From Candidatus Woesearchaeota archaeon (GTDB taxonomy: Archaea > Nanobdellota > Nanobdellia > SCGC-AAA011-G17 > JACPIM01): 26,922 nt of DNA. The notes under the pieces were generated by a model that saw only the letters and a program-made list of their open reading frames with translations, ran no database searches and was not told the origin of the DNA. Position numbers and translations under genes: made by a program. Positions 11,012 to 26,922 of the stretch are shown one piece after another. The stretch's first letter is position 1. Each line of letters opens with the position of its first letter. Location: positions 1-26,922 of the forward strand of contig CAZELK010000011.1 in assembly GCA_964513145.1 (NCBI GenBank). Reading direction: 5' to 3'.

Positions 11012-11033
11012 TTAACCTTTTTGAATTTTTCTT

Positions 11034-11462
11034 ATGATAAATACTTATTTAAGAAAGAATCACGACGGGACTTGGACAGATAAAACACCAGATATTCCAG
11101 CATCTATAAATTGCGAAGGCGAGTTTGTAGCTGTTACAAGAAGATACGGTGCTGAAGCTGATTTAGGCCAGGCATTAAATTCAGTAAGAACAAGAAGGGG
11201 GGATAAAGTAAATGCTGCTTTAGAGGTTGCGAAACCTTTTGGAATAGAATTTTTAGCAGCAAAATTCGGGCATTTAAATGAAAAATTAGGATTGAATGCT
11301 GTTATTGTCCCTAATAGTTATCAATTTGATGGCTGTATTTATTTTGAGTATGATTTAAGAACTAATGGGTGCATATATGTCTGTAATGTGAAGAGCAAAA
11401 AAAGCAAGCCAGTAGAAATATCTAAAGTTATTACAGAATTATCAAAAAGAAAAAAGAACTAA
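11034..11462 (+). CDS. hypothetical protein (142 aa)
   Basis: Open frame with a well-placed TATA box. Confidence 0.6.
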   Translation: MINTYLRKNHDGTWTDKTPDIPASINCEGEFVAVTRRYGAEADLGQALNSVRTRRGDKVNAALEVAKPFGIEFLAAKFGHLNEKLGLNAVIVPNSYQFDGCIYFEYDLRTNGCIYVCNVKSKKSKPVEISKVITELSKRKKN

Positions 11463-11815
11463 AATTTTAAACTGTTTAATTTTCTTTCAATCTCTTCAAG
11501 ATCCTGGGTTAATTTGTCCTTATGAGAATTTAATTTTTCTTCTTTTTTTGGTTTAACAATTCTTTCCATTTTTTCTTCAGAAGAACCCAACCATGAAATA
11601 TCCTTAAATTCCAGTGTATTTGCAAGAGATTTAGCTTCTGAAAATAATAACTTTATCTTAAAAACTTCTTTTTTCTTCTGCCTATTAATTTGAATTAATC
11701 TTTCATATTTTTTAGACAGGTAAGTTGTAAGTTTTGCAGATTCAAGAATATTTGTTCTAAGATCCACTTTATCCTTAATCATTACAAAAACTTCGCCTTT
11801 TGGATCTTGCTGCAT
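11459..11815 (-). CDS. hypothetical coiled-coil protein
   Basis: Heptad-rich (KLTQDLEEIERKLNSLKF); 1 bp downstream of the next gene. Confidence 0.7.
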   Translation of the reverse strand: MQQDPKGEVFVMIKDKVDLRTNILESAKLTTYLSKKYERLIQINRQKKKEVFKIKLLFSEAKSLANTLEFKDISWLGSSEEKMERIVKPKKEEKLNSHKDKLTQDLEEIERKLNSLKF

Positions 11816-11816
11816 T

Positions 11817-12296
11817 TTAAACTTCGAATAAATCCTTGTCTACTTTCATTAATTTCTGTCTTACTTCGTCCAAACTAGACTGCCATTCTTGAAGTTCTTT
11901 TTCTTCCTCTTCTCTTAATCTTGTTAAATTCTTAAGAACAGCGTCTGCTTCTTCTAATTTTGACTTAATTGATTCCACTGTTTTTGCAGATTCCTTATAT
12001 TTGTCTACTTTCACAAACAATGGCTTATCATCATTCCTTTCAATTGCTGTTAAAGGAGATTTTCTTGGAACAAAATCATCAAAACTAAGATCTTCTTTTT
12101 CAAAACTTGGAGCCATCTGCTTTTCAAAACTGAAATTTTCTGTTGGTATTATTTTTTTAAATTCTGGTTTAAATGGTTCTTTTTTATCATTTACTTGTTC
12201 ATCATAAAACGAAAAATTTGGCTCATTTGGCAGTCTAGGAAATTCAGGCAAAGGCAGAATTCTCTCTTCTTTTTTCTTTTTACTAAATATGCCCAT
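11817..12296 (-). CDS. hypothetical protein: basic N-terminus, Pro-rich linker, C-terminal coiled coil
   Basis: MGIFSKKKKE, LPLPEFPRLP, PLFVKVDKY plus coiled coil. SD-like aagggggtgt precedes ATG 12296. Confidence 0.75.
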   Translation of the reverse strand: MGIFSKKKKEERILPLPEFPRLPNEPNFSFYDEQVNDKKEPFKPEFKKIIPTENFSFEKQMAPSFEKEDLSFDDFVPRKSPLTAIERNDDKPLFVKVDKYKESAKTVESIKSKLEEADAVLKNLTRLREEEEKELQEWQSSLDEVRQKLMKVDKDLFEV

Positions 12297-12420
12297 TAAC
12301 ACACCCCCTTAAATAATATAAAAATAGGATTTACTTTATTAAACATTTCTTATTATTTATAAGTAGTTATTGTTCTAGAATACATAAATTATTATCAAGA
12401 TTAAATAAATTTATCTGAAA

Positions 12421-12789
12421 ATGAATGATTTAAATGAAATTAAGGAAGAAATAAAAGAATTCATGATTGAAAGAGACTGGGATAAGGCACATAATTCAAA
12501 AGACCTAATTATTGCTTTAGTAAGTGAGGTTGGCGAATTGGCTGAATGCTATAGGTGGCTTAACAATGAACAGATACAACAAATTAATTCTGAGAAAGAC
12601 AAGAAAAGAAAAATTGAAGAAGAAATTGCAGACATTCTTATTTACTTGATAATTTTAGGCTATAAAAATGACATTGATTTAATTAAGATTATTAAGGAAA
12701 AAATGGAAAAGAACAGGCTTAAATTTCCGGCTGATAAATTTAAGGGAGTAAATACTAATCCAATTATTGGGATTAAAGGAAAAACTTAA
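12421..12789 (+). CDS. MazG-like nucleotide pyrophosphohydrolase (dCTP pyrophosphatase type)
   Basis: ERDWDKAHNSKDL, EVGELAEC, EEIADILIYL, KMEKNRLKFP. Confidence 0.92.
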   Translation: MNDLNEIKEEIKEFMIERDWDKAHNSKDLIIALVSEVGELAECYRWLNNEQIQQINSEKDKKRKIEEEIADILIYLIILGYKNDIDLIKIIKEKMEKNRLKFPADKFKGVNTNPIIGIKGKT

Positions 12790-12850
12790 ATTAATTTATA
12801 AAAAAATAAATTAGTAAAACTTTTTATATATAAACAACTTGAATATTTTT

Positions 12851-13477
12851 ATGCAAATTTTAACTGAAAAAGATGCTGAAGATTTTCTTGAGAAAAAAGG
12901 GTTTCCAGTTGCAAAAAGAATTGCTGCAAAAAGTTTAGATGAAACAATTAAGGCAGCAAAGAAAATAAAATTTCCGTTAGTTTTAAAAATTATTTCTAAA
13001 AGAATAATTCATAAATCTGATGTTCATGGTGTAAAATTAAATATTAAAAATCTTGAAGAACTTGAAAAGGCTTTTAATGAACTTAAAAAAATAAAAAATT
13101 TTGAAGGTGTTTTAGTTCAAGAATATTTAGAAGGACAATATTTAATTACTGGATTAAAAAATGACCCTACTTTCGGACATGTTTTGGTTTTTGGGTTAGG
13201 AGGCATTTATACTGAAGTTTTGAAAGATGTTTCTTTTCGCGTCTGTCCAATTAATAATAAAGAAGCTATTGAAATGGTAAAAGAAATTAGGGCTTATAAA
13301 ATTCTGGAAGGAATACGAGGGGATAAGAAAGTTAATTTATATTCTATTTACAGGGTTTTATTGGCTCTTTCAGAATTATCAAAAAGATACAAAGATATCC
13401 AGGAATTAGACATTAACCCATTAATTGCAAATGAAAAATCTGCAAAAATAATAGATGCCAGGATTATATTTAATTAA
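12851..13477 (+). CDS. acdB: acetate--CoA ligase (ADP-forming) beta subunit, ATP-grasp
   Basis: FPLVLKIIS..IIHKSDVHGV, DPTFGHVLVFGLGGIYTEVLKDVSFR, ELDINPL; ATG at 12851. Confidence 0.93.
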   Translation: MQILTEKDAEDFLEKKGFPVAKRIAAKSLDETIKAAKKIKFPLVLKIISKRIIHKSDVHGVKLNIKNLEELEKAFNELKKIKNFEGVLVQEYLEGQYLITGLKNDPTFGHVLVFGLGGIYTEVLKDVSFRVCPINNKEAIEMVKEIRAYKILEGIRGDKKVNLYSIYRVLLALSELSKRYKDIQELDINPLIANEKSAKIIDARIIFN

Positions 13478-13535
13478 TTTCTGTGTAGCCAGACTTTATA
13501 CAAAGAATTAAAAATACTGCCCTGTTTATTTAATT

Positions 13536-14240
13536 ATGCTAAAAATAGATATGCATACACATTGCAATGAAGACCCTATAGACGGGTTTATTTCACATTC
13601 TGCAAAGGAATTGATAGATTATGCAGCAAAATTAAATTTTAATGTTTTATCAATAACATGCCATAATAAGGTTGTTTATTCTAAAGGGCTGCAAGATTAT
13701 GCTAACCAAAGAAATATTTTGTTAGTGCCCGGGGCTGAAAAGGATATAGAGGGAAGACATGTTCTGCTGTACAATTTTACCCAGAATGAAATAGACTTAA
13801 TTGAGAATTTTGAAGATTTAAGAAAAATAAAAAAGGAACATCATTTTGTCATTGCACCGCATCCTTTTTATTTTCACCCAAAGAAGATATCCTTATTTTC
13901 AAAGCTAGAAAATAATATTGATTTATTTGATGGCATAGAATTTTGTCATCTTTATACAAGGAGGTTAAATTCCGGAAACAAAAAGGCTAAAAATATTGCT
14001 TTAAAATACAACCTTCCTTTAGTTGCTGGCTCAGATCTACACAATTTAAAACACATGGACACTAATTTTTCCCTGGTAAACTCCAAAAAAAATATTTCCT
14101 CTTTATTCAAGGCTATAAAAAATAACAATATAGAGGTATCATCAAGACCGAGAAATACTTTTGAATTAACCAAGATTTTTGCTTTCTTTGCAACAAGCCC
14201 ACTAAAACACAAAATATTTAATAGCTTAAAGACGAATTAA
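13536..14240 (+). CDS. PHP-domain metal-dependent phosphoesterase
   Basis: IDMHTHC, SITCH, APHP, GSDLH. Confidence 0.9.
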   Translation: MLKIDMHTHCNEDPIDGFISHSAKELIDYAAKLNFNVLSITCHNKVVYSKGLQDYANQRNILLVPGAEKDIEGRHVLLYNFTQNEIDLIENFEDLRKIKKEHHFVIAPHPFYFHPKKISLFSKLENNIDLFDGIEFCHLYTRRLNSGNKKAKNIALKYNLPLVAGSDLHNLKHMDTNFSLVNSKKNISSLFKAIKNNNIEVSSRPRNTFELTKIFAFFATSPLKHKIFNSLKTN

Positions 14241-14245
14241 TCTGA

Positions 14246-14812
14246 ATGGTGTTTATATCAATTATTGAGGTTTTTTATTTAGTAATTTTAACATTTATAC
14301 TTGGTTATATTTTTTCTGGATTTATAAAAAAACCAAAAACAGAAGTTGATGTAATAGATTATGACAGACATTTTAACTGGGAAGATATTAAATATGCCAT
14401 TATAGTTGCTGCACCAGCAGTTATCCTGCATGAGCTTGCACATAAATTTGTAGCTATGCTTTTTGGATTAGATGCAGTTTTAAGAATTTTCTGGGAAGGT
14501 TTGGGGTTGGCAATATTTTTGAAAATAATAAGTTCGCCTTTTTTAATTGTGGCTCCTGCGTATGTTTCTATTTCCGGGGATGGAACTGCATTTCAAGAAA
14601 TGCTTACTTCTTTTGCCGGACCTTTGATGAATTTAATCTTATTTTTAGCAGCATACATTATTTTAAACATGGCAAGATTAACAAAAAATCAGGCAACAAT
14701 ACTTTACTTAACAAAGCAGATAAATTTATTCTTGTTTATTTTTAACATGGTGCCTATACCACCTTTAGATGGAAGCAAGGTTTTTTATAATTTATTTAAA
14801 ATTATTTTTTAG
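14246..14812 (+). CDS. site-2 protease (peptidase M50)
   Basis: HELAH zinc motif, AGPLMN, NMVPIPPLDG. Confidence 0.93.
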   Translation: MVFISIIEVFYLVILTFILGYIFSGFIKKPKTEVDVIDYDRHFNWEDIKYAIIVAAPAVILHELAHKFVAMLFGLDAVLRIFWEGLGLAIFLKIISSPFLIVAPAYVSISGDGTAFQEMLTSFAGPLMNLILFLAAYIILNMARLTKNQATILYLTKQINLFLFIFNMVPIPPLDGSKVFYNLFKIIF

Positions 14813-15491
14813 GTTTCTTTTTTGGTTTTTTATTTTTTACTGGTAGTTTTACTATTTTCTTTGCAGTTTTTTTTGGCTTTGATTTTTCTTGTCTCTTTTT
14901 CTTTCTTAGTTTTTTTTGTCTTTCTGCTTCTCTTTCCCTTTCTAATTTTCTGTTAAGCAATTTTAATTGCTTGTCTTCAAGATCTTGGAGCTCTTTGAGA
15001 TCATTTTCTATAGCTGCAATTTCCCTGTTGATTTTATCTATATTTTTTTTATTTTCTTCTCTTACAAGAATTCTACCACATTCAGGGCATTTAAACTGAT
15101 ATTCCATTGCATTTGTTGAGTCAAACCTGACACATTCGCTTGGACATGCATAATAAGTTTCGCTGTTTTCTTTTTCAAGCCTTTTTTTCAACATAGTTAT
15201 CTTGGTTTTCTTTAAATTTAATGCCAGTTCTTTAGCTAAACTTAAATTAAAAGACCAGAAATAAATATACCATCCCTTGACTTTGTCTTTTTTTCTTGTA
15301 AAATCCACCAGATTATGGCTGTTTAACCTATAAAGCATATTTCTTGCCTGATTAACAGTAATGTCTAACTTGGCAGCCAGCTTAAATTCAGAAACATTGC
15401 TTTTATTCTTTATTAAATTGACAAGTGGTACAACTTCTTTACCGCCTATTTCAAGAATTAAATCGTCAATAATTTTGTCAAGTATATTCAT
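14802..15491 (-). CDS. tfe: transcription factor E alpha subunit with Lys-rich C-terminal tail
   Basis: wHTH (SEFKLAAKL...RNMLYRL...GWYIYFW) and Zn ribbon (CPSEC...FKCPECG). Confidence 0.92.
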   Translation of the reverse strand: MNILDKIIDDLILEIGGKEVVPLVNLIKNKSNVSEFKLAAKLDITVNQARNMLYRLNSHNLVDFTRKKDKVKGWYIYFWSFNLSLAKELALNLKKTKITMLKKRLEKENSETYYACPSECVRFDSTNAMEYQFKCPECGRILVREENKKNIDKINREIAAIENDLKELQDLEDKQLKLLNRKLEREREAERQKKLRKKKRQEKSKPKKTAKKIVKLPVKNKKPKKKPKK

Positions 15492-15594
15492 GGATTATAA
15501 ATTTATTAAAATTCTTGTTTAAATATGTTGTGGTTTAAGGGCTTTTAAGCAAATAAAAAGGGTTTTATATGGGTTTAATTTAGTTATTTTAGGG

Positions 15595-17514
15595 GTGAAT
15601 GGAATCTTTAAAAAACTATTTATAATTTTATTATTACTATTGGCTTGCACAAGTGCCCAGGACTATAGTCAATATAAAGACTTAGACCTGAATTTTTACT
15701 TGGGTTCTAATTTAAGCATAATCAGGCTCACTGACAAGGCAAATATTGATTATGCAAGCGTTAATGTTCTTCTCTTGCCAAGAAATGAAAGCAGTCTAAA
15801 AATAAAAAACATAGAATTTACTTCAAGCCCGAGTGCATCTGTAAAAGTCAATGATAAGGCTACTTTTACATGGAATGAAATTAATACTGACTTGTTAAAA
15901 TTTGGGGTAATTTCAAATGTTAAAGTTAATAATGATTTTATAAAAATCAGGAGAAAAATAAATTTTCCTGTGAATTTTTCTGATGAATATAAAGAATTTA
16001 CTTTGCCTACAAAGTTTATTGACATTGATGAAGTGATAAGTGAAAAAGCACATGAATTAGTTCAGGGAGAAGAGGATCTTTATTTTGCAGTTTTTAATAT
16101 TGCTGACTGGGTCAGAAATAATGTTAAATATGACTTGAGCACTATAACAGCAAAGGCAGTTCAAAAATCTACCTGGGTTTACTATAATAAAAGGGGGGTT
16201 TGTGATGAAATTACTAATTTGTTTATATCAATGTTGAGATCTGTTGGAATACCAGCCAGGTTTGTATCTGGAACTGTTTACAGCAATTTAATAGGCACTT
16301 GGGGAAATCATGGATGGGCAGAAGTTTATTTTCCAGATTATGGGTGGGTGCCTTTTGACATTACATTTGGGCAATATGGGTGGGCTGATCCATCTCATTT
16401 GAAATTATCTGAAACTGCTGACTCTGGCGAGAACTCTGTGGAATATAGCTGGAGATCAAAAGATGTTGACATAAATATAGATCCTTTAACATTGTCTACT
16501 AACCTTGATAAATCTGGAAATAAATTCGGGTCTTTATTTGACTTAAAAATCAGCACAGTAAATGAAAATAAATTTGGATTTGGGAGCTATGTTCCTATTG
16601 AAGTAACTGCAACAAACTTAAATGATTATTACCTTGGCACGATCATAAGCATGATAAAGGCACCTGAATTAGTTGATGTTAATTTTAAGAATATTTTATT
16701 AAGACCAAGAGAAACAAAGAGTTATTATTTTATAGGGAAATTGCAAAAAAATTTAAGCAGTGATTATGAGTATACTGGTGATATAGAAGCTGTTGAATCT
16801 TTTGGCAGACATGCCTTTTATAATATTTTACTAAAGAATGACTATGCCTCTCTTGGATTTTCAGATGTCAAAGACATTATTGACAAATTAAATAAAAGAG
16901 AATTGAAAAAGATTTCCTCTTCTTTAACACTAAATTGCAAGCCTGAGAAAATTTCTTATTATTCTGATGAAGAAATAAATATTGAATGCAAAGTAAAGAA
17001 TAATGGGAATACTTTGCTTAAAGATGTTAATGTCTGCCTTAAAAACCAGTGCAGAAAGATTGAATTAAGAATTAACCAAGAGGAAATAACAAAATTAAAA
17101 ACTAAAAATGAAAAAAACATATTAATTACAGCTGAAACAAATGAATTTATCTCAAGAAATAATCTAAAAATTGAAATTATAGAAGTTCCAAATATATTTA
17201 TCAGCGGCATAAGCGATCATGTTGTTGATTATAAGGAAAAGATTAATTTAAGCTTTATTTTCAATACAGATGTAAAAGCCCATAATGTAAGCATTTTAGT
17301 CAATGAAAGATTTTTTGAGCTAAATGACCTTGACATGAACAAGGAAGTTAGCCTAACTTTATTTGGAAGAGAACTTTTAGATGGATTAAATATAAGAGCC
17401 TGGTATTATGACAAGAAAGGAAATAAATATGTAAAAGACTTTAGTTTTGAAATTAAAGTTAATAATCTCCCATGGTACAGGAGATTTATACAATTTATTA
17501 CATTCCAGAAATAA
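15595..17514 (+). CDS. secreted transglutaminase-like (Cys-His-Asp) domain protein
   Basis: Signal peptide; GVCDEITNLF..MLRSVGIPARFVSG and HGWAEVYFPDYGWVPFD give the triad; Ig-like C-terminal region. Confidence 0.9.
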   Translation: MNGIFKKLFIILLLLLACTSAQDYSQYKDLDLNFYLGSNLSIIRLTDKANIDYASVNVLLLPRNESSLKIKNIEFTSSPSASVKVNDKATFTWNEINTDLLKFGVISNVKVNNDFIKIRRKINFPVNFSDEYKEFTLPTKFIDIDEVISEKAHELVQGEEDLYFAVFNIADWVRNNVKYDLSTITAKAVQKSTWVYYNKRGVCDEITNLFISMLRSVGIPARFVSGTVYSNLIGTWGNHGWAEVYFPDYGWVPFDITFGQYGWADPSHLKLSETADSGENSVEYSWRSKDVDINIDPLTLSTNLDKSGNKFGSLFDLKISTVNENKFGFGSYVPIEVTATNLNDYYLGTIISMIKAPELVDVNFKNILLRPRETKSYYFIGKLQKNLSSDYEYTGDIEAVESFGRHAFYNILLKNDYASLGFSDVKDIIDKLNKRELKKISSSLTLNCKPEKISYYSDEEINIECKVKNNGNTLLKDVNVCLKNQCRKIELRINQEEITKLKTKNEKNILITAETNEFISRNNLKIEIIEVPNIFISGISDHVVDYKEKINLSFIFNTDVKAHNVSILVNERFFELNDLDMNKEVSLTLFGRELLDGLNIRAWYYDKKGNKYVKDFSFEIKVNNLPWYRRFIQFITFQK

Positions 17515-17515
17515 A

Positions 17516-18136
17516 ATGTATAAACTAATATTATTTGATTTTGATGGTACAATAGCCGACACTATTGAGCTTGGAATACCAATATTTAATGAACTAGCAA
17601 GAAAACATAGGTTCATTGAATTAAAATCAATTGACGAATTAAGGAATGTCAGCTTAAAAGAATTTTTTAAGAACCACAAAATTAAGAGAATAAAATTTCC
17701 CATTTATTTCAGGGAGTTTTTAATTAAACTAAATAAAAGCATGGATAATGTCAAACTATATAATGGAATGGACAAAGTCATAAAAAGATTAAATAAAAAT
17801 TATAAACTTGGGATTGTATCAGCAAATTCAAAAGACAATATCAAAAAATTTCTAAAGGTTAATAATTTAGAATTTTGCTTTGATTTTGTCTATAATTACT
17901 CACTGGTTTTCGGGAAGTCAAAGGTATTCAAGAAGATTTTAAAAAAGAAGAAATTAAATGAAAATGAATTAGTTTATATTGGCGACGAATTAAGGGATAT
18001 TATTGCTGCTAAGAAAGCCAGCATAGATATTATTTCTGTTACATGGGGCTTTAACAATAAATTAATTTTAAAAAGCCAAAAGCCTAATTTTATCGCAGAT
18101 AAGCCTTCGGATATACTTAAATTTTTAGAAAAATAA
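17516..18136 (+). CDS. HAD-superfamily hydrolase (phosphoglycolate-phosphatase-like)
   Basis: LFDFDGTIAD, IVSAN, YIGDELRD. ATG 17516 follows the upstream stop by 1 bp, preferred over the ORF-track start 17447. Confidence 0.92.
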   Translation: MYKLILFDFDGTIADTIELGIPIFNELARKHRFIELKSIDELRNVSLKEFFKNHKIKRIKFPIYFREFLIKLNKSMDNVKLYNGMDKVIKRLNKNYKLGIVSANSKDNIKKFLKVNNLEFCFDFVYNYSLVFGKSKVFKKILKKKKLNENELVYIGDELRDIIAAKKASIDIISVTWGFNNKLILKSQKPNFIADKPSDILKFLEK

Positions 18137-18246
18137 CCCGAATATTGCTTATAATCTGAAAATACCCTAAAACTCCATTTAAAAAAATAAATATTCTTGG
18201 TTTATTTGGGCTTAAAACTACTTTATACAACAATTTCAAGGTTACA

Positions 18247-18260
18247 AAAAGATTTATATA
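18247..18260 (+). promoter_or_regulatory. BRE-TATA promoter (aaaagatttatata)
   Basis: Identical to the minus-strand 14-mer at 25258-25271; spacing favours ATG 18284 as start. Confidence 0.6.
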
Positions 18261-18283
18261 TTAAAAAATGAATGAAATTTTAT

Positions 18284-18493
18284 ATGAAAAATTTAAAGGT
18301 GATTGTAAGTGCTTTTATAATCTTATTATGGAGTTTTACTTTTGCCAAAGTTGACATAACTGGAAAAGCAGTAAAAGAATATACTGTAGGTGGATTTGGT
18401 TTTTTCCCAGTTTTATCTGTTGTTTTTCTGCTTGTTAGTTTTGTTTTAGTATGGTTATATCTGAAGAATGAAGATGAGTATACAACTCATTAA
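18284..18493 (+). CDS. small 2-TM membrane protein with ITGKAV motif
   Basis: Two hydrophobic helices flanking DITGKAV; start moved from 18272 on TATA spacing. Confidence 0.65.
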   Translation: MKNLKVIVSAFIILLWSFTFAKVDITGKAVKEYTVGGFGFFPVLSVVFLLVSFVLVWLYLKNEDEYTTH

Positions 18494-18520
18494 AACTTTT
18501 TTTAAAAAGCTTTACCAAAA
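18491..18520 (+). repeat. short palindromic dispersed repeat (copy between convergent genes)
   Basis: taaaactttttttaaaaagctttaccaaaa matches the copies at 25380-25407, 25411-25440 (inverted) and 25478-25510. Confidence 0.7.
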
Positions 18521-18534
18521 AAATTATTTAATAA

Positions 18535-19977
18535 TTAATAAGTATTAGCTATATAACCTATTTCATCAGAATTTTCTTTACAAATTACGCATTTACCTTT
18601 AACCTGCTTTAAATCTGTTCCAAATAATTCTATTCCTTCAGATATCTCTTTAATTTTAATCCAACATTTTTCTGAGCTGCACCAATTTACTTTAGCAACT
18701 TTTTTGTTTTGCATAGATTCACTAATATCTTTTGCATTTGAAACTTCTACTATTATATTTTTATTGAGCTGCTTAGAATTTTCATAGAGCTTGTCCTGAA
18801 TTTTCTCCAAGATTATTTTTGCTTCTTTTGATATGTCTGATTCTTTTATGATCTTCTTTTCAAATGTCAATCTATTAGTTAAAGTTAATTGCTTATTTTC
18901 AATTTCCTTAAGACCTAGCTCAACTCTTAACGGGACTCCTTTTATTTCCCAATCATAAAATTTTCTTCCTATTGTTATTTCTCTGTCATCTAAATGTGTG
19001 TTTATTCCAGATTCAGTTAAAGATTTCAAAACTTCTTTTGCTTTTTTTACAACTTTTTCTTTATTTTCTTTATTAAATACTGTTGTTATTACAACTTGAA
19101 TAGGAGCTATTTTAGGCGGTAAAATTAAACCTTTATCATCACCATGAATTAAAATAACTCCTGCTAATAATCTTGCACCATTTCCTGTACAAACCTGCCA
19201 AGCATATTCTTCTTTTCCTTTTTCATCTTTGAATTTGATATTGAATTTTTTAGCATAAGCCTGGCCAAGTTTATTTATAGAACCATTTTCCATAGCTTTT
19301 CCATTTGAAATTAAAGAATAATACTCTATGGCACCAACTGCACCAGGAAAGCATTCCCACTTTGGTTTATTAACTCTTAATGGTTCTAATGCCAACTCTT
19401 TCCATATTTTATCATTTAACTTAATATGTAATTCTGCTTCTTTTTCAGCTTCTTCTTTTGTTGCATGAACTGTATGTATCTCATGCCATACAGTTATCTC
19501 CCTATCTCTTATAATTGGCATTGTATGCTTTGTTTCATATCTAAAACTTGAAACTGTTTCATAGATTCTTATTGGCAAATCTTTTTTAGTTCGTGTCCAT
19601 AAAGAAAACATTGGGTACATTGCTGGTTCACCTGTTGGCCTTAAAATATAATTTGCTTTTTCTTCATCTATTCCTTTAACCCAGAATGCTTCTTCTTTAA
19701 AACCATCGAACCACTGATCATTTTGTTTTGCATATTCAATAGGAACCAATAATGGAAAGTACATTTCTTCAATCCCAGAATCTTGAAATAATTTGTCCCA
19801 TATATTTTTTATATTCATCATTGCTTTATATCCATATGGGAGCCATACATAGCATCCCTTGACAAGGTATCTCTTATCAATTAATTTGGCAGTTTCAACA
19901 ATGTTTGTATACCATTTAGAAAGGTCTTCTTTTCTTGCTGGCATTTCTTTTGCCTGCCCTATATCTTCTTTTCTCAT
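18535..19977 (-). CDS. proS: proline--tRNA ligase (archaeal/eukaryotic type)
   Basis: VKGCYVWLPYG, LRPTGEP, FRYETK, IHGDDKGLILPPKIAPIQVVI, anticodon-binding domain, C-terminal Zn domain ending in Tyr. Confidence 0.97.
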   Translation of the reverse strand: MRKEDIGQAKEMPARKEDLSKWYTNIVETAKLIDKRYLVKGCYVWLPYGYKAMMNIKNIWDKLFQDSGIEEMYFPLLVPIEYAKQNDQWFDGFKEEAFWVKGIDEEKANYILRPTGEPAMYPMFSLWTRTKKDLPIRIYETVSSFRYETKHTMPIIRDREITVWHEIHTVHATKEEAEKEAELHIKLNDKIWKELALEPLRVNKPKWECFPGAVGAIEYYSLISNGKAMENGSINKLGQAYAKKFNIKFKDEKGKEEYAWQVCTGNGARLLAGVILIHGDDKGLILPPKIAPIQVVITTVFNKENKEKVVKKAKEVLKSLTESGINTHLDDREITIGRKFYDWEIKGVPLRVELGLKEIENKQLTLTNRLTFEKKIIKESDISKEAKIILEKIQDKLYENSKQLNKNIIVEVSNAKDISESMQNKKVAKVNWCSSEKCWIKIKEISEGIELFGTDLKQVKGKCVICKENSDEIGYIANTY

Positions 19978-20052
19978 AAAATGTACTATTTTAAGACGTT
20001 ATATAAAGTTTTTGAATAAATTTTTATATTAGTTTGAATTATAATAGTTTAA

Positions 20053-20544
20053 ATGGAATTAATAATCCTTGGCTTAGATCCTGGTTCTACTATAGGTTAT
20101 GCTGCTTTAAATTTAGATGGGGAATTACTTAAAATAGAATCTTCAAAAAACAGCAATTTAAATCAAACTATATCTAAAGTAAACATGCTGGGAAAGATTG
20201 TAGTTGTTGGCACGGATGTAAATCCAGCACCTAAATTTGTTGGAAAGGTTGCTAGCAATTTGGGGGCTGAGATAGTTGAACCTAAGGATGACTTGTTATT
20301 AAAATATAAGAAAAAATTAACAAAGGAGTTTTTAAAAGATAAAGAGATCAAGATTAAAAATAAACATGAGCTTGATGCTTTAGCTGCTGCGTTAGCTGCT
20401 TTTAAACATTACAAACCCTTATTTAATAAAATCGATAATCATTTAAATCAAATAAATAAACTATATTTAAATAAAAAAATTAAAAATACTGTTTTAGTAA
20501 ACAAAATGTCAATAAAAAAGGCGTTAGAGAAATATGGTTGTTAA
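20053..20544 (+). CDS. DUF460-family RNase H-fold protein
   Basis: ILGLDPGSTIGYAALNLDG, VVGTDVNP.P..V.K, HELDALAAA. Confidence 0.85.
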   Translation: MELIILGLDPGSTIGYAALNLDGELLKIESSKNSNLNQTISKVNMLGKIVVVGTDVNPAPKFVGKVASNLGAEIVEPKDDLLLKYKKKLTKEFLKDKEIKIKNKHELDALAAALAAFKHYKPLFNKIDNHLNQINKLYLNKKIKNTVLVNKMSIKKALEKYGC

Positions 20545-20836
20545 TGTTGATTTTAAAAGGGATGCATTCTTATTATTTTGTTCATTATTATTTTATTTAG
20601 CTTTTTTATTTTTAAATATAGCGCAAGATAGCGATGCACGAGAAAATCAAAGTTTCAATGACTATGACACACCGCCAGAAATATGCAATAATATATATGA
20701 AGACAGAATTTTTAAAGATGAATCTGGACATGAAATATTAAGATGTGTAAAGCTAGGCATACCAGAAATTACTATTTATCCCAAAACTTGCCAGGAATTA
20801 AAATTTATATCTGATTATCCTTTAAAGGAATGTTAA
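20534..20836 (+). CDS. hypothetical membrane-anchored protein
   Basis: N-terminal TM helix, small Cys-containing extracellular domain. Confidence 0.55.
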   Translation: MVVNVDFKRDAFLLFCSLLFYLAFLFLNIAQDSDARENQSFNDYDTPPEICNNIYEDRIFKDESGHEILRCVKLGIPEITIYPKTCQELKFISDYPLKEC

Positions 20837-20903
20837 TTCTTAGTTCTAAAGTATTGTAAGAATATACAAATATTTTTAAATTATAGGTTAATTCTGAAGT
20901 AAA

Positions 20904-21035
20904 ATGGTATTGAAATGCAAGGAATGTGGAAAAGAATTAAAAGTAATAGTTGACAATAATCCCTATAATTCTGATGTTTATTATATTGGAAACAAGGTTG
21001 TTTGCGGTGAATGCTTTAAAAAACACAAAAACTAA
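20904..21035 (+). CDS. 43-aa zinc-finger microprotein
   Basis: Below the ORF-track cutoff; hand translation MVLKCKECGKELKVIVDNNPYNSDVYYIGNKVVCGECFKKHKN*, with CxxC-x25-CxxC. Confidence 0.75.
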   Translation: MVLKCKECGKELKVIVDNNPYNSDVYYIGNKVVCGECFKKHKN

Positions 21036-21247
21036 GCTAAGTCTATTATTCTTCCAAGACCATCCCACCTAATCACTTTCTTTTTACCAAATATTTCTTC
21101 CTTCGATACTTCTTTTAACGGCTTTTTTATATATTTTAATCCGCTGCTTTTATAATTGAAAAAATCATATATCAACGTAATTTGATTTGTTTCAGAAACT
21201 ATTATTGTTTTTTCTTCAAAAAAATATATTCCGTCTTCCACTAACAA
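21032..21247 (-). CDS. hypothetical protein, possibly a 5'-truncated remnant
   Basis: TTG start, begins just beyond the diverged att-like repeat; no motif recognised. Confidence 0.4.
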   Translation of the reverse strand: MLVEDGIYFFEEKTIIVSETNQITLIYDFFNYKSSGLKYIKKPLKEVSKEEIFGKKKVIRWDGLGRIIDLA

Positions 21248-21282
21248 AAAAGAATTTTAATAATTTATAAATATTTATGTGT

Positions 21283-21382
21283 GGGTCTACAACGATTCGC
21301 TTCTGATTTAGGTTGTAGCTTGTTGCATTTAATATGTAGTAATTTATTTTTTGACATTTTTATCAAATTCTTCATCCTCCTT
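21283..21382 (-). repeat. diverged att-like repeat with upstream arm (SD + MSKNK micro-ORF, 21265-21357)
   Basis: Core gggtctacaacgattcg is 14/17 identical to the tRNA 3' core. The arm cttctgatttaggttgtagct is 19/21 identical to 23290-23310. Both share atgtcaaaaaataaa and aaggagg on the minus strand. Confidence 0.82.
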
Positions 21383-21394
21383 ATTATTCCATAA

Positions 21395-21550
21395 TTATTT
21401 CATTTTTCGTTTTTGAATTTCTTTTAAAAAATTATTTTCTTTTCTGTTTTCTTTTGTTTCTTTTCCTATATCATTTTTAGAAATATTTTTCTCTTTAGCT
21501 GTTTTCCACATAATTTTAAAAGTATTTTCAAATTCAGTAAAGTCTTTCAT
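21395..21550 (-). CDS. 51-aa hypothetical protein cotranscribed with the TA pair
   Basis: Hand translation MKDFTEFENTFKIMWKTAKEKNISKNDIGKETKENRKENNFLKEIQKRKMK*; aggt SD-like sequence upstream; starts 6 bp after the antitoxin stop. Confidence 0.5.
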   Translation of the reverse strand: MKDFTEFENTFKIMWKTAKEKNISKNDIGKETKENRKENNFLKEIQKRKMK

Positions 21551-21556
21551 TTTTAC

Positions 21557-21862
21557 CTATTTTGTCGGAATTAATTTTATTCCTTTTTCATCTGGAATCA
21601 AGACTACTTCTTCTTCATCTTTTAATTTAAATTTTTCTACAATTTCTTTTGGTATTCTTAACCCTAAACTTAAACCCCATCTTGTTAATTTAACGTGGTA
21701 GTTTTTCATAACTCTATATTTTTCTGCAATATTATGCAACTGATTCATATTTAGAATTTCTTCTCCACATTTTTGACATTTAAAATAAATATATTCTATT
21801 CCTTCTGGGGTTTTGTTAATTAATTCTTTCATTTCTCCATTACATTCAGAGCATTTTTTCAT
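21557..21862 (-). CDS. antitoxin: YgiT/MqsA-type zinc finger fused to AbrB/MazE DNA-binding domain
   Basis: CSEC...CQKCGEEIL finger; RWGLSLGLRIPKEIVEKFKLKDEEEV is an AbrB fold. Confidence 0.85.
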   Translation of the reverse strand: MKKCSECNGEMKELINKTPEGIEYIYFKCQKCGEEILNMNQLHNIAEKYRVMKNYHVKLTRWGLSLGLRIPKEIVEKFKLKDEEEVVLIPDEKGIKLIPTK

Positions 21863-22089
21863 TTTTCCTCCTCAATTGTGAATATTTTTATTTTTGTTCC
21901 AATAATTTGACCAACACAAATAATTGTTCTTTTACTTCCTTCACTTATGAACTTGACACCGTGCTTTCCAAATCTTTCTATTTTTCCTTTGATTAAAGTG
22001 TCTTCTATTAAATCTGGATTGATTCCTCTTTTCATAGCTTGTATGAAAACGTGATGTTTAATTTCTAAGTCATACTTGCTTATATCCAT
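21859..22089 (-). CDS. DUF4258-family (RelE-like) putative toxin
   Basis: HVFIQAMKRGINPDLIEDTL...KIKIFTI; ATGA overlap with the antitoxin. Confidence 0.72.
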   Translation of the reverse strand: MDISKYDLEIKHHVFIQAMKRGINPDLIEDTLIKGKIERFGKHGVKFISEGSKRTIICVGQIIGTKIKIFTIEEEK

Positions 22090-22099
22090 TTAATATCAC

Positions 22100-22119
22100 T
22101 TAATATTATAGAATATTAA
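22100..22119. promoter_or_regulatory. inverted repeat, putative TA operator
   Basis: ttaatatt-atag-aatattaa between a TATA-like box (22124-22131) and ATG 22089; all-AT arms, so weak. Confidence 0.35.
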
Positions 22120-22210
22120 ATAGTATTTAAATATTTGCATTTGAATTTTATTCAAGAAAAGTTTAAATTCTTAAATAACATAAACTTTATTAGAAAATCT
22201 TTCAATAATT

Positions 22211-23236
22211 ATGGTTGATTTAGAATTAAAAGAAAAAGTAGAAGAAATAAGGAGAATTAAAGCTAATCGATATTTAGGTACAAAGGATGCTTTAAATTTA
22301 ATTAGACTAAAAGAAGAGTTAGAAGATAGACCAACAAAGATTTCTGATTTGATTAATAAAGAATTGGGGTATGCTAAATATAAGGCTACTCCCGAAGGCA
22401 TAGCTTATATTGATAGGATGGAAAAAGAATTTGGAGGCTCTTTAAGAAGTTCCAATTCTTTTATTCCTACAGAAAATTTAGAAAAAAATATTAGAGAGGT
22501 ATTTCAAGCTTTAGGACTTGGTTTATGTTCTGTTTTTGTTGAGTATGAAGAAAGAACCGGATTCATTAGAAAAGAGATTGATAAAAATATTGTTAAAAGA
22601 TTAATAGATTATTATAAAAAAGCTAATGAAATAGGTGTTGATACTGAAGAAAAATTTAAGCAATTTGTAGTGGACCAATATATATTACCCCTATTCGAAG
22701 GTAGGGTAAAACCTGTTTATATAGACTTTTTTAAGAGTAATCCAAATATTGTTATTGCTAAAGGTGAAAATCTATCTCTTTCTTATAGAAAAGAAAAATC
22801 TCTTAATAACTATTTAATAAAAAAGAAGATTGAAGAAAAAATACCAAAAAGAATTTTAAATGATTTAGTTGGAAGAGAAAAAAAACACGGAAGAGAACTT
22901 ATTGATATTACTCTTGAAGACCATTTGGAACTTTTTTCTATAAAAAGTATGTTCGGAGATGAAAGAGTAATAGATTCGAAAGTTATCTACGAATATATCA
23001 TAAATGAAGATCCAGAAGAAGTATATAATTCTATAATATGGGAATTAAATAGTAGAATAACTGGTTGTTCATCTGTTTTGGCAGAAAGCAAAATTCCACA
23101 AAGTGCAGATAAAAAGAATTTTCTGAAAGAAGTAAATCAAAATCTTCAGAAACTTAGATTAATTCGAGAGGCTTATGGAAGAGAAAAAAGATATGTTATA
23201 CTTAAAATAAAGAATTTTATGCCAAGAAATGAATAA
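22211..23236 (+). CDS. hypothetical protein (341 aa)
   Basis: Long open frame; no recognised motif. Confidence 0.7.
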   Translation: MVDLELKEKVEEIRRIKANRYLGTKDALNLIRLKEELEDRPTKISDLINKELGYAKYKATPEGIAYIDRMEKEFGGSLRSSNSFIPTENLEKNIREVFQALGLGLCSVFVEYEERTGFIRKEIDKNIVKRLIDYYKKANEIGVDTEEKFKQFVVDQYILPLFEGRVKPVYIDFFKSNPNIVIAKGENLSLSYRKEKSLNNYLIKKKIEEKIPKRILNDLVGREKKHGRELIDITLEDHLELFSIKSMFGDERVIDSKVIYEYIINEDPEEVYNSIIWELNSRITGCSSVLAESKIPQSADKKNFLKEVNQNLQKLRLIREAYGREKRYVILKIKNFMPRNE

Positions 23237-23268
23237 ATAAAAAGATATGACGCTTTGGAATAGAAACA

Positions 23269-23355
23269 TATCGGGCCTACGAGGATTCGCTTCTGACTTG
23301 GGTTGTAGCTTTTGGCTTAGCTGGTAGTTTATTTTTTGACATTTTTATCCTCCTT
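23269..23355 (-). repeat. attR-like repeat: 21-bp tRNA-Arg(TCG) 3' core (23269-23289) preceded by conserved arm with SD and ATG (23342)
   Basis: Core identical to 25336-25356; arm homologous to 21300-21382. Confidence 0.9.
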
Positions 23356-23364
23356 ATTTATTAG

Positions 23365-24108
23365 CTATTTCTTCTTTAATTTCCAAATTGAAAATAAAGG
23401 AACTTTTCTATAAAATTCATATTCTTTTGGGTCAATTTTCTTAGCACTACGTAAAGGTTTTGTATCTTCATAATCAATTACTTCAAAACCATATTTTTAT
23501 GTAAGATTAATAATTGTTTTCGGTTTTATAATATAATTAAATATGTTTATTTTTTTACCGCTTTTTGTAGTATAAATTATTTCAGTTTTATCTGTTGTAA
23601 AATAATTCCTTATTCCAAGAACTTTGTATTTCTTTCCTTTTATTTTCATACCTTCTCCAGCTCTTGCTATTGGATTTCCAGTAGAAAAAATAAAAATTCC
23701 ATTTGGTTTTAGTACTCTTGCTATTTCTTGAATTGGTTTATCTAACTTTTTTAAATAATGTAGTGACAATGAAGCGAAAACTATATCAAAATTTTCATTA
23801 AATGGTATATTTATTCCAGACCCAATTTTTATTTCCGTATTTGGATTATTTCGTTTTGCTATCTCAACCATTTCTGGCGAGATATCAAATCCTTTAATAA
23901 TTGCTCCTTTAGATTTTAATTTTTTAATATAAATACCTGAACCACAACCCCAATCTAATATTTTTTTATTTTTAACATTTCCAAGCATCTTCATCATTGA
24001 AGGCATTTCTGTCATTTCGTTGTAAAAAGATTTTTTTGTTCTTGTTTTATGATATTCTTCTGCAAGACCTGAATACATTTTAATTGCATCTTTTTCGTCT
24101 TTGTTCAT
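23365..24108 (-). pseudogene. class I SAM-dependent methyltransferase interrupted by an in-frame TAA (23497-23499)
   Basis: ILDWGCGSG, GFDISPEMV, FDIVFASLSLHY. The frame continues past TAA for 43 codons (KYGFEVIDYEDTKP...KVPLFSIWKLKKK*) with a typical MTase C-terminus. Confidence 0.8.
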
Positions 24109-24653
24109 TTTTTCTTATCCAATTCATTTAATAAAATATTCATCTCAAGCAAAAATTGTTTTGCTCTTTGTAGAGAAGTTTTAGCTTTTGCCTGTTTGTC
24201 AATATCTTCGGTCCTGTATTGGATTTTACTTCTCTTTGCTTTCTCTTGGTCAAAGGATTCAATTAAAGAATCAGCTTTTATTCCAGCCAAATTAAGAGCC
24301 TCATCTTTGCTGTCTTCATATCCTTCAATTAAAGTCTCTTTTAATTTTCCTCTTGCGTATATTATCAAGGCATCAGCAGTTACTTTATGTGCAATTTTCT
24401 CTCCGACTCTATATCCTAATTTGCGAAGAACAGCATTAGCAATATAAAACATTGAATAATAAGAGCAAACAATAACCCATAAGTCAGATATTCTTTCTAT
24501 ACTTAATTTTTTTGCTGAGTCTATACTCTCCTGAGCATTTCTTAACAAAACTCTAAGAGCATCTATGTTTAGAGGTTCTTTTTTTAATAAGCCTTCTTCC
24601 AAATAAGATTTAACATTAGTTTCAGCCTCTTTTATTCTATCTTTCGTTAACAT
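24105..24653 (-). CDS. HEPN-domain protein (UPF0332-like), toxin partner
   Basis: WVIVCSYYSMFYIANAVL, H..T..AL, and R-X4-Y (RSKIQY) at the HEPN catalytic position. Confidence 0.85.
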   Translation of the reverse strand: MLTKDRIKEAETNVKSYLEEGLLKKEPLNIDALRVLLRNAQESIDSAKKLSIERISDLWVIVCSYYSMFYIANAVLRKLGYRVGEKIAHKVTADALIIYARGKLKETLIEGYEDSKDEALNLAGIKADSLIESFDQEKAKRSKIQYRTEDIDKQAKAKTSLQRAKQFLLEMNILLNELDKKK

Positions 24654-25227
24654 TTTTTAATAGCCTATAATACTCCTCTATTCCGATTAATATAAAATTC
24701 TTTTTAAGGACTTCGCTTACAACACTAAATTCTTTGCTTGTTGCCATTAGAATAAAACTTTCATAAGTTACAGGTGTTAAGTGGATATCTTGAGGAAATA
24801 TACTTAGTTTGTCTTGAACTTTTTTAAAGTGTTTCTCATCAGAAATAAGAAGAAAATCTATGTCTGAATGTTTTGTTGCTGTTCCTTTAGCATAGCTTCC
24901 AAATAAAAGAATAATAAATGGAAACTCTAATTTTGACAAGCTATCATAAATTACTGGAAATTCCCTTTTCTTGAATAAATTCTCTCTTCTCAAATACTCT
25001 GCTTTGAAAACCAAATCATTAAATTTATTATTGAATGAACATAAAGTAGTATTCCCTACTTTCTTTAATTCTACAATATTTTCTTTCTCAAGAACTTTTA
25101 AAGCATTATAAGCAGATTTATAATTTATTTTTCTTTGCAAGGCTATTTTTCTTATGCTATAAATTTCTTGTTTATTTTCAATTAATAACTTTAATATTTC
25201 TATTTTCTCACTAGGTTTATTGTCCAT
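24637..25227 (-). CDS. wHTH + minimal nucleotidyltransferase (MNT) antitoxin
   Basis: YSIRKIALQRKINYKSAYNALKVL (HTH); LLFGSYAKGTATKHSDID is GS-X10-DXD; ATG at 25227. Confidence 0.9.
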   Translation of the reverse strand: MDNKPSEKIEILKLLIENKQEIYSIRKIALQRKINYKSAYNALKVLEKENIVELKKVGNTTLCSFNNKFNDLVFKAEYLRRENLFKKREFPVIYDSLSKLEFPFIILLFGSYAKGTATKHSDIDFLLISDEKHFKKVQDKLSIFPQDIHLTPVTYESFILMATSKEFSVVSEVLKKNFILIGIEEYYRLLKNVNER

Positions 25228-25231
25228 ATTA

Positions 25232-25249
25232 AACCATAATATTATGGTT
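25232..25249. promoter_or_regulatory. perfect 18-bp palindrome, putative operator of the wHTH-MNT
   Basis: aaccataatattatggtt equals its reverse complement; lies between the BRE-TATA (25258-25271) and ATG 25227. Confidence 0.65.
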
Positions 25250-25338
25250 AAGAAACATATATAAATCTTTTGATAAAATCTTCGTCGTTTCGTTCCCACT
25301 AGCTACCGAGCTACTCGCTAATCGCTCCGTAGAAGTAT

Positions 25339-25477
25339 CGGGCCTACGAGGATTCGAACCTCGACCAGAAGCTATCTCCTAAACTTTTGAAAAAGTTTAA
25401 TCAAAGATTATCTTTTGCTTAAGCTTTTTCTAAAAGCTTACCGAAGGCTACTGTTCTGTCCATTAAACTATAGGCCC
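25339..25477 (-). tRNA. tRNA-Arg(TCG) with a 67-nt intron at 37/38 (25374-25440)
   Basis: GGGCCTA/TAGGCCC acceptor, GTTT/GAAC D-stem, GTAGC/GCTTC anticodon stem (one U-U), loop CTTCGG|A, CGAGG-TTCGAAT-CCTCG T-arm; 72 nt mature. Central BHB helix CTTC/GGAG with bulges GG|T and AT|A. Confidence 0.92.
25380..25440. repeat. two inverted copies of the palindromic repeat forming the tRNA intron
   Basis: taaacttttgaaaaagtttaatcaaaga (25380-25407, +) versus taagcttttagaaaaagcttaagcaaaaga (25411-25440, -). Confidence 0.85.
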
Positions 25478-25510
25478 AAAAACTTTTTTTGAAAAGTTTT
25501 ATCAAAAAGA
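25478..25510 (+). repeat. palindromic repeat copy abutting the tRNA 5' end
   Basis: aaaaactttttttgaaaagttttatcaaaaaga. Confidence 0.75.
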
Positions 25511-25556
25511 GTAGAAAGGTATATAAAAAGTTGTTTATTATTCTTAATTTGAAAAG

Positions 25557-26870
25557 ATGAGTGATTTAGAGAAATTTTTTTATCCGAAAAGCATTGCTGT
25601 TATTGGCGCATCTAATAATGAAGGAAAGGTTGGCAATGCCTTGATGTGCAATCTAAAAAATTTTGAAGGCAAAGTTTTCCCAATTAATTTAAATGAAAAT
25701 GAAATTCTTGGTTTTAAAGCACATAAAAGCGTTTTAAATGTTAAGGAAAATATAGATTTGGGAGTAATAGCTGTACCTGAAAAATCTGTTTACAAGGTTT
25801 TAGAAGAATGCGGGAAAAAAAGAATCAAGAATGTTATAATAATTACTGCCGGATTTTCTGAAATCGGAAATTTAAATGGACAAGAAGCTTTAAAAAAAAT
25901 TTCCGATAAATACAAAATAAGAGTTTTAGGTCCAAATAATTTCGGCACTGTAAATCCGTATATAAAATTAGACACATCATTCTCAAAATTAATGCCTGAA
26001 AAAGGAAATATTGCATTGATATCGCAATCCGGGGCTTTGTGGGTTTATATATCCCAATTAAGTTTAGAAAAATTTGGGTTTTCTATTTTTGCCAGTTTAG
26101 GTAATATGGTTGATGTTGATTTTGCTGATATTATTGAGTATTTAAATGAAGAAAAAAATACAAATATAATTGTTTGCTATATTGAGACTTTGAAAAATGG
26201 AAAGAAATTTATGGAAGTTTGCAGAAAAAGCAAGAAGAAAATTATTGCAATTAAAGCTGGCTCCACAGATGCTGGACAAAAAGCAGCCTTAAGCCATACA
26301 GGGAGTTTAGCTGGAGAGATTGATATTTATAAAACTGCATTTAAACAAAGCAATGTATTTTTGGCTGAGACTGTTGAGGATGCATTTGACAAGGCTCAAT
26401 TTTTCTTAAGCCAGGAATTAAAAGGTAAAAAAACAATAATAATTACAAATGGCGGTGGTTTGGGGGTGTTATGTGCTGATTACTGTGCAAAGAATTATTT
26501 AGAAATAGTAAAATTACCTGAAAGCTTAATTGAGCATTTAAACTTAAATCATAACTGGAGTAAAAATAATCCTATTGATATTGTGGGCGATGCAGACTAT
26601 ATAAAGTATAAAGAAATATTTTTAAAACTAGAAGAAAATAAGAACTTCTTTGACAATGTAATTGTAATTCTAAGCCAGCAAGAGATGATAAATGTCTTAC
26701 ATGTTGCGAAAGAAATTGTAGAATTTAGAAAAAGAAGCAAAAAGTCTGTTATTTGCTGCTTAGTCGGAATAGGAGAAAATATTGATATGTCCAAAAAATT
26801 ATTAAATGAAAATGGGATTTTAAGTTTTTTTGAGCCTGAACGATGCGCTAAAGTTTTAAAAAACATCTAG
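25557..26870 (+). CDS. acdA: acetate--CoA ligase (ADP-forming) alpha subunit
   Basis: PKSIAVIGAS, VLGPNNFG, ISQSGAL, LGNMVDV, AALSHTGSLAG (phospho-His), ITNGGGLGVLCAD, NPIDIVGDA. Confidence 0.95.
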   Translation: MSDLEKFFYPKSIAVIGASNNEGKVGNALMCNLKNFEGKVFPINLNENEILGFKAHKSVLNVKENIDLGVIAVPEKSVYKVLEECGKKRIKNVIIITAGFSEIGNLNGQEALKKISDKYKIRVLGPNNFGTVNPYIKLDTSFSKLMPEKGNIALISQSGALWVYISQLSLEKFGFSIFASLGNMVDVDFADIIEYLNEEKNTNIIVCYIETLKNGKKFMEVCRKSKKKIIAIKAGSTDAGQKAALSHTGSLAGEIDIYKTAFKQSNVFLAETVEDAFDKAQFFLSQELKGKKTIIITNGGGLGVLCADYCAKNYLEIVKLPESLIEHLNLNHNWSKNNPIDIVGDADYIKYKEIFLKLEENKNFFDNVIVILSQQEMINVLHVAKEIVEFRKRSKKSVICCLVGIGENIDMSKKLLNENGILSFFEPERCAKVLKNI

Positions 26871-26922
26871 AGCTCTGGTGCATTCCTAATTTTTAAATAG
26901 ATAGAGGCATAGCCTTCTATTG

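Follow-up and report, generated by a model that had tools for sequence, protein, structure and literature searches.

Integrons bring together gene cassettes that carry attC sites, an IntI integrase and an attI site. In streptococci, integrated elements that are not autonomous, namely the cis-mobilizable elements (CIMEs) and the tandems of integrative and conjugative elements (ICEs) and phages, build up one behind the other at a single attachment (att) site (see also PMC13651849). Suicidal integrases of the Sulfolobus spindle-shaped virus (SSV) type, the defining features of which were taken here from PMC8371274, have so far been described in Sulfolobales, Thermococcales, Archaeoglobales and Methanosarcinales (PMC8371274); among the papers searched, none linking them with DPANN archaea was found, and the mobile elements of DPANN are almost unstudied. 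The locus examined here lies in a stretch of 26,922 nucleotides (nt), referred to as the window, which is the entire contig C11 (CAZELK010000011.1, assembly GCA_964513145.1) of a Candidatus Woesearchaeota archaeon whose genome (G000; 977 kb, 28% GC) is 98.8% complete. A sequence-only reading of the window had picked out a minus-strand frame that crosses a tRNA-derived core and had likened it to a split SSV-type integrase gene. The frame, open for 20-67 codons, is not a fragment of an integrase; in our judgement the chances are slightly better than even that it is part of an att module of ~130 bp, which is conserved as recombination-site DNA and bounds integrase-less cassettes.

Comparisons were made with G001, a genome of the same genus, with G002 and G003, also of that genus, with G008, which is in the set of module carriers, with a sample of 240 genomes of the order, and with metagenome contigs or loci (L269, L287 and L290-L295).

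Two cassettes at the 3' end of tRNA-Arg(TCG)

Positions 21283-25338 of the window are two integrase-less cassettes at the 3' end of a tRNA-Arg(TCG) gene. The empty site is found on contig C16 of G001, which is collinear with the window at 15314-21053 and at 25415-26883. Because only ~320 nt, holding the tRNA gene, separate these two blocks on C16, the intervening part of the window is a two-cassette insertion. C16 is without 21283-25338 and keeps both flanks, and what follows the tRNA there is similar to the stretch beyond the last, degenerate core of the window, so that an att-flanked element can be set beside its empty site. The core is repeated at every cassette boundary, with direct repeats of the 3' part of the tRNA at both borders of the element. 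The att and cassette framework proposed in the sequence-only reading is upheld.

The sequence upstream of each distal core (Shine-Dalgarno sequence, ATG, ~55-80 nt) is termed the P arm, that after the tRNA the T arm, and that after the core at 23269 the M arm. On the minus strand the order is tRNA-Arg(TCG), core, T arm, the MNT-HEPN-methyltransferase genes, P arm, core and M arm, followed by open reading frames (ORFs) of 341 and 76 aa, an AbrB-like ORF, a 51-aa ORF, a second P arm, the degenerate core and the native flank. The features, with a remote junction in last place, are as follows.

25338-25478, minus strand: tRNA-Arg(TCG) gene with a 67-nt intron (Rfam RF00005, 50.6 bits; ARAGORN with introns); its 3' end is the integration target (attL side)
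25336-25356, minus strand: att core copy 1, 21 nt, from the T-loop to the tRNA 3' end, with exact copies at 23269-23289 and 4699-4719
25285-25335, minus strand: T arm (P' arm of cassette 1), with an inverted 12-nt motif at 25310-25321 and GTAGC-like units ~7 nt apart
23497-25299, minus strand: cargo of cassette 1 (Pfam, NCBIfam), with an MNT nucleotidyltransferase at 24637-25299 and HEPN at 24105-24653
23497-24108, minus strand: S-adenosylmethionine methyltransferase of the same cargo (Pfam, NCBIfam)
23291-23365, minus strand: P arm copy a, with a Shine-Dalgarno sequence, ATG at 23342 and 12-nt motifs at 23317-23328 and 23298-23309
23280-23342, minus strand: small ORF of P arm copy a, 21 codons, frameshifted, with its stop within the core
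23269-23289, minus strand: att core copy 2, at the junction of cassettes 1 and 2
23245-23268, minus strand: M arm (P' arm of cassette 2); the same sequence stands after two P-core junctions of G001
21395-23236, both strands: cargo span of cassette 2
22211-23236, plus strand: 341-aa ORF of cassette 2, without family (no match in Pfam, NCBIfam or PDB sequences)
21859-22089, minus strand: 76-aa ORF of cassette 2
21557-21862, minus strand: 101-aa Zn-ribbon/AbrB-MazE-like ORF of cassette 2
21395-21550, minus strand: 51-aa ORF of cassette 2
21301-21385, minus strand: P arm copy b, in which ATG at 21357 follows a Shine-Dalgarno sequence; the 12-nt motif is degenerate at 21329-21340 and recurs at 21308-21319
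21268-21357, minus strand: small ORF of P arm copy b, 30 codons
21281-21300, minus strand: att core copy 3 (attR), degenerate; the native flank beyond it is homologous to the empty site on G001 C16
4668-4747, minus strand: remote junction, with a P-arm remnant, the exact core at 4699-4719 and a T-like arm with a motif at 4680-4691

The tRNA-Arg(TCG) gene is missed by ARAGORN in default mode and was recovered by Rfam and intron-aware ARAGORN. Recombinase genes were not found in either cassette in a Pfam and NCBIfam scan of the cargo, and PF00589 had no match on contig C11. Housekeeping genes (AlaRS, ProRS, TFE and others) occur throughout 4720-21280. At 4668-4810 the truncated, 26-codon N terminus of a CPYC glutaredoxin is fused to the P-arm remnant, which is followed by the core and the T-like arm; this resembles a decayed P-core-T junction in housekeeping DNA, 16.5 kb from the array.

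The att arms, their motif and the frame across the core

P arms were found at 18 junctions: on contigs C11 (two), C12 and C1 of G000, in G001 (four) and G008, and at L269, L290 (three), L291, L292, L294 and L295. That on C12 belongs to a cassette at tRNA-Lys and that on C1 to a cassette at tRNA-Arg(CCT), where an M-like arm follows the tRNA. T arms are also present after tRNA-Arg(GCG) on C5 and tRNA-Lys(CTT) on C12 of G000, as well as in G001 and in the metagenome arrays. No T arm follows the tRNA-Arg genes of G002 and G003 or the tRNA-Arg(TCG) gene of G001 C16; because three tRNA-Arg genes in the genus are without it, the T arm is carried by the element, and its being a native trailer of the tRNA was ruled out. 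The cargo varies by cassette (MNT-HEPN, MazE-PIN, HicAB-like, Fic, TrmB, methyltransferases and an Ig-like protein), and no recombinase was seen in any cassette examined, including the called genes of L290-L295. The arms are common to cassettes with wholly different cargo and to four different tRNA cores. Copies are 75-90% identical and, outside a single genus and its sister genus, were seen only in a few groundwater metagenomes.

A 12-nt motif, GCTACNNGCTAA, is common to the arms, with two direct copies 21 nt apart in P and one inverted copy in T. The 21-nt spacing holds in the eight P arms in which both copies were detected, with no insertion or deletion (indel) between them, and the inverted motif is placed 34-35 nt from the T-loop in all T arms examined, including those with unrelated spacers (tRNA-Lys on C12 and L291). 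All three exact matches in the genome and 9 of 14 with one mismatch fall in P or T arms; by our estimate from base composition, ~0.6 exact matches would be expected genome-wide. The halves of the motif extend as a series with a period of 7 nt in both arms. Translated, motif copy 2 gives the "KLQPK" of the frame and the inverted copy gives "LASS". The first P motif and the T motif are inverted repeats ~67 nt apart that are predicted to pair; RNAalifold gave no covariation and no compensatory changes between P and T, and a P-core-T junction matched no tRNA-like or other known RNA in Rfam. Kinship with the heptad arrays of the DIP1984-associated RNA of G000 and with VIPR vrRNA was rejected, as the units there are different (CAAAG-type and 5-nt GGY/NN, respectively).

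All codon readings given in the sequence-only reading were reproduced. KLQPKSEA precedes the core at 23290 and 21300 on the minus strand, with both differences synonymous; TSTER follows the core at the tRNA and TFTER at 4699, the remote junction; and the Shine-Dalgarno sequence and ATG (MSKNK) are in frame at 21357 and frameshifted at 23342, the distance from ATG to T-loop being 60 and 55 nt, respectively. The NPRRPD reading of the core stands where the 21-nt core is exact, at three sites, and is lost in the degenerate core at 21281-21300. The TSTER frame of the T arm is an open stretch (25232-25378) without a start codon. What did not hold up is the coding signal drawn from four of five differences being at third positions, for which P = 0.045 with the frame fixed and ~0.14 over three frames. 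The downstream comparison in the sequence-only reading ended at TSTER; past that point an indel separates the tRNA and 4699 copies, and substitutions fall at every codon position. With more copies there was no third-position bias over 14 P arms or 9 T arms. Minimum changes at codon positions 1:2:3 of the ATG frame of the P arm were 13:16:19 (14 arms) and 10:14:17 (10 arms), with 6:6:7 in the best-aligned block, and those of the T arm, in the frame proposed from the window, were 6:6:5 (9 copies) and 13:11:12.

Taken modulo 3, the ATG-to-T-loop distances of the first five Arg(TCG/GCG)-type copies to be found are 1, 0, 1, 0 and 2; every Arg(CCT)/Lys-type copy gives 2. Because these values differ between copies, the tRNA fragment is crossed in two phases, read as NPRRPD or as GVQI. 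The largest difference in this distance (59 versus 80 nt) is one 21-nt repeat unit. Copies a, c and e are frameshifted, these being 3 of ~13 copies found without a protein search, and a hand count of indels among copies not found via protein databases gave three in frame, one of which is a 21-nt repeat unit, and three out of frame. Junction ORFs range from 4 to 67 codons; the joined P-core-T and P-core-M frames have 34-67 codons and stop before the next gene. No sign of selection is seen in the junction peptide, and what is conserved at the junction seems to be the DNA and not the protein.

A scan of genome contigs with a P-arm pattern recovered G001 and G008 only, and a gapped P-arm pattern run over the metagenomes gave, among the matches listed, spurious loci only. 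The 101-aa Zn-ribbon/AbrB protein of cassette 2 was matched (E <= 1e-5) in 112 of the 240 genomes, with ~28 close orthologues at 53-93% identity (L209-L238), and its gene adjoins a tRNA gene in two genomes (L224 and L229). Zn-ribbon/AbrB and HEPN genes, the latter in 107 of the 240, were rejected as markers of the P arm: both are widespread, and the P arm follows only in G000, G001 and G008.

Several arm-bearing loci have further features. L290 (1-7100), L292 and L294 hold longer arrays, with at least three junctions, beside ProRS or EF-1beta genes; the order of cassettes, which contain MNT-HEPN, TrmB, MazE-like, Fic, MazE-PIN, HicA and DUF3368/UPF0175 pairs, varies by contig. Beside the same EF-1beta and HIT genes, the tRNA-Arg(GCG)-core-T unit of G000 C5 (L006) points away and the P-core-T unit of G001 C14 (L033) is reversed, which is consistent with an inversion between inverted att sites. 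On G000 C12 (L039, 5546-9015) a TnpB (OrfB_IS605) gene lies directly upstream of tRNA-Lys(CTT), after which come a T-like arm, MNT-HEPN, a P arm and a degenerate tRNA 3' fragment. The tRNA-Arg(CCT) cassette of G000 C1 (L270, 164000-171000) contains MNT, a HEPN-like ORF, a PIN fragment and a histidine phosphatase, and is neighboured by a 524-aa gene with LAGLIDADG and intein-splicing domains. IS200-type Y1 transposase genes directly adjoin P-core junctions at L269 (189-593, minus strand) and L294 (6127-6588); the Y1 transposase was rejected as the mobilising enzyme, being absent from G000 and G001.

Integrase searches and genuine SSV-type integrases of the order

The proposal that the arms are int(N) fragments with a stub of int(C) failed on the refuting observations that the sequence-only reading itself had named: third-position bias is lacking over 14 P arms and 9 T arms, and no homologue of the arm peptides extends into a recombinase or another conserved ORF. 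No remnant of int(C) was detected, and the SSV-type integrase family PF16795 is absent from G000, its genus and G008. When seven DPANN Int(C) sequences and the Int(N) of L287 were used in tblastn searches of G000 and the cassette loci, the best match (E = 0.11) lay elsewhere in the genome. A word-indexed search with the core-T frame peptide matched no protein longer than 80 aa, and a profile of the P peptides found no longer protein except P0001 (234 aa, with a P-like start), which was discarded as an antisense artefact over an IS200 tnpA gene. An exhaustive HMMER search of 1.84 billion proteins with a profile of six core-T frames returned only junction ORFs of 38-67 aa (P0012, P0014, P0015, P0019 and cluster members) and unrelated or artefactual matches; P0013 and P0016-P0018 were dismissed as repeat translations or unrelated proteins.

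Downstream of tRNA-Arg(TCG) there are MNT, HEPN and methyltransferase genes instead of a PF16795 int(C). The three tyrosine recombinases of G000 are all encoded off C11, one (Xer-like) on C12 and two in an island on C1. This island (14000-24000) holds the two recombinases (294 and 322 aa) and large ORFs and is probably a separate integrated element. Neither the two C1 integrases nor a 422-aa integrase of G001 C9 was retained as the cognate enzyme, as they have no P-like N terminus and no att module nearby.

SSV-type suicidal integrases do also occur in this DPANN order. PF16795 gave one clear hit in the 240 genomes, G091, where an int(C) (C3 5538-6409; L278/L284) has tRNA-Met immediately before it on its own strand, and its frame continues unbroken across the tRNA in the phase G-S-N-P. 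L287 contains a complete split pair (9785-10672 and 18606-18896), with int(C) beside tRNA-Met and a 96-codon int(N) 9 kb away that has a Shine-Dalgarno sequence, encodes 62 residues before att and reads into a 93-nt att repeat; the element encloses VRR-NUC, AlbA_2, Avd-like and DUF5906 genes. Integrated forms (149-289 aa) account for all ten of the Int(C) homologues recovered. The strand and the codon phase across the T-loop noted in the window agree with these genuine int(C) genes. The Int(N) of L287 is unrelated to the P-arm peptide, and the P arm has 17-24 codons before the tRNA fragment.

Explanations and comparison with known systems

The evidence for a recombination-site module comprises the insertion, for which an empty site is known, and the motifs of the arms; codon positions show no bias, and no copy continues into a recombinase. 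The ~130-bp module consists of a P arm, the tRNA-derived core and then a P' arm, and bounds cassettes of ~2 kb with toxin-antitoxin or defence-type genes and no integrase. In a few Woesearchaeota-like DPANN genomes related to one another, such cassettes have been inserted successively at tRNA-Arg and tRNA-Lys genes, in each case at the 3' end. From the arrangement of the repeats we infer that a recombinase or an accessory protein, provided in trans, binds the 12-nt motifs, and that such a recombinase would mobilise the cassettes by recombining the module with the tRNA 3' end. KLQPK...NPRRPD...TSTER is motifs and tRNA fragment spelled out from a conserved ATG. Several observations weigh against this explanation. 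The ATG is kept at 18 of 18 junctions, with a Shine-Dalgarno-like element before most (several have no clear one), and it starts the same frame in two sequence configurations. Of the 18 copies, 15 keep the frame open across the core; some of these were found via protein databases and so are biased to intact frames. Between the two core types there is a shift of +2 nt on the P side and one of +1 nt on the T side, which leaves the P and T frames in register. Given the close kinship of the copies, conservation through recent descent is not easily told apart from conservation through function; for the arms, neither a binding protein nor a recombinase was identified in the genomes examined, and G008 carries the module, yet its sole tyrosine recombinase is Xer-like.

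The conserved ATG, the open frame and its register are compatible with a translated junction micro-ORF of unconstrained sequence but are no proof of one. In an unlikely, though still serious, explanation, the junction ORF may be a micro-gene of 38-67 codons that starts in P and is complete only when P, core and P' are contiguous, at a tandem junction or in the excised circle. Its product could be a small basic factor for att binding or directionality, or the ORF could be a leader to which the opening gene of the next cassette is coupled. Intact P-core-T ORFs are present at all three junctions of L290 and at L291, L292, L294 and L295, where they are listed by gene callers; those of L290, L291 and L292 have 38-58 codons, and P0015, seen as protein only, has 67. 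In the window the T frame ends one base before the likely MNT start. The micro-protein proposed in the sequence-only reading thus has intact counterparts of 38-67 codons in related metagenomic arrays, but its restriction to the excised circle does not stand, because the ORFs occur at tandem chromosomal junctions. Neither arm shows codon-position bias; the C termini and stops vary by copy (40, 46, 53, 58 and 67 aa), the frameshifted copies and out-of-frame indels counted above and the two phases of the tRNA fragment also speak against it, and the ORF has no relatives beyond these junctions.

It appears very improbable that the arms derive from an SSV-type integrase whose catalytic part was deleted, with a decayed int(N) in P and an int(C) stub in T. 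Genuine elements of this type exist in the same order, the G091 int(C) runs through the tRNA in the same phase, and the P arm shares the geometry of the L287 int(N) reading into its att repeat. Against these stand the absence of PF16795 from G000, the genus and G008, the empty tblastn searches, and the sequence and greater length of the real Int(N) before att; the T and M frames end within 10-45 codons without matching a protein of more than 80 aa, and the phase in which the tRNA fragment is read is a different one in Arg(CCT)/Lys-type copies. It is also improbable, though somewhat less so, that the arms are now functionless, having been conserved through a recent spread of cassettes that left the motif repeats and the ORF as historical residue. 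The high identity and narrow range of the copies and the lack of compensatory changes between P and T would fit this, but the inverted motif keeps its position despite unrelated spacers, the arms are common to different cargo and four tRNA cores, and the motif is almost absent elsewhere in the genome.

In these reduced genomes, integrase-less toxin-antitoxin cassettes of small size accumulate at tRNA genes via a shared and well-defined att module, and this module, with its 12-nt motif and fixed geometry, offers a handle for finding the recombinase and cataloguing cassettes. A tempting split-integrase signature can arise from repeated DNA motifs and a tRNA fragment. The locus resembles SSV-type integrases (SSV1, pTN3 and pT26-2; PF16795; PMC8371274, PMC7253208) in that an ORF having a start of its own continues into a core derived from a tRNA, on the strand of that tRNA, in the repetition of tRNA 3' fragments at the borders, and in a codon phase across the T-loop as in the real DPANN int(C). 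It is unlike them in having no catalytic half, no PF16795 in the genome, a junction ORF of at most 67 codons, an unrelated peptide, and 17-24 codons before the core as against ~62 in the real relative.

The cassettes resemble CIMEs in being bounded by att sites, lacking a recombination module of their own, standing head-to-tail at one target and presumably being moved by an integrase in trans. Candidates for this role, all circumstantial, are the Xer-like and other tyrosine recombinases encoded elsewhere in the genomes. Unlike CIMEs, they are archaeal (DPANN), of ~2 kb, loaded mostly with toxin-antitoxin pairs and equipped with long conserved att arms with phased 12-nt repeats, and no cognate autonomous element or integrase was found. 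We tentatively suggest, as a possible but on balance doubtful view, a DPANN integron-like system, in which ~2-kb toxin-antitoxin or defence cassettes would form arrays at tRNA-Arg and tRNA-Lys, separated by ~130-bp modules with mirrored 12-nt repeats and a junction micro-ORF of their own, completed only by the joining of both arms, and would be moved by a recombinase in trans. The arrays differ from integrons in having no IntI or attI beside them, in a module built on a tRNA 3' fragment, and in cassettes with several genes, in both orientations and apparently with their own promoters. They are like integrons in their small cassettes of one to a few genes, with a conserved, putative recombination module of ~100 bp between them that contains inverted repeats predicted to pair.

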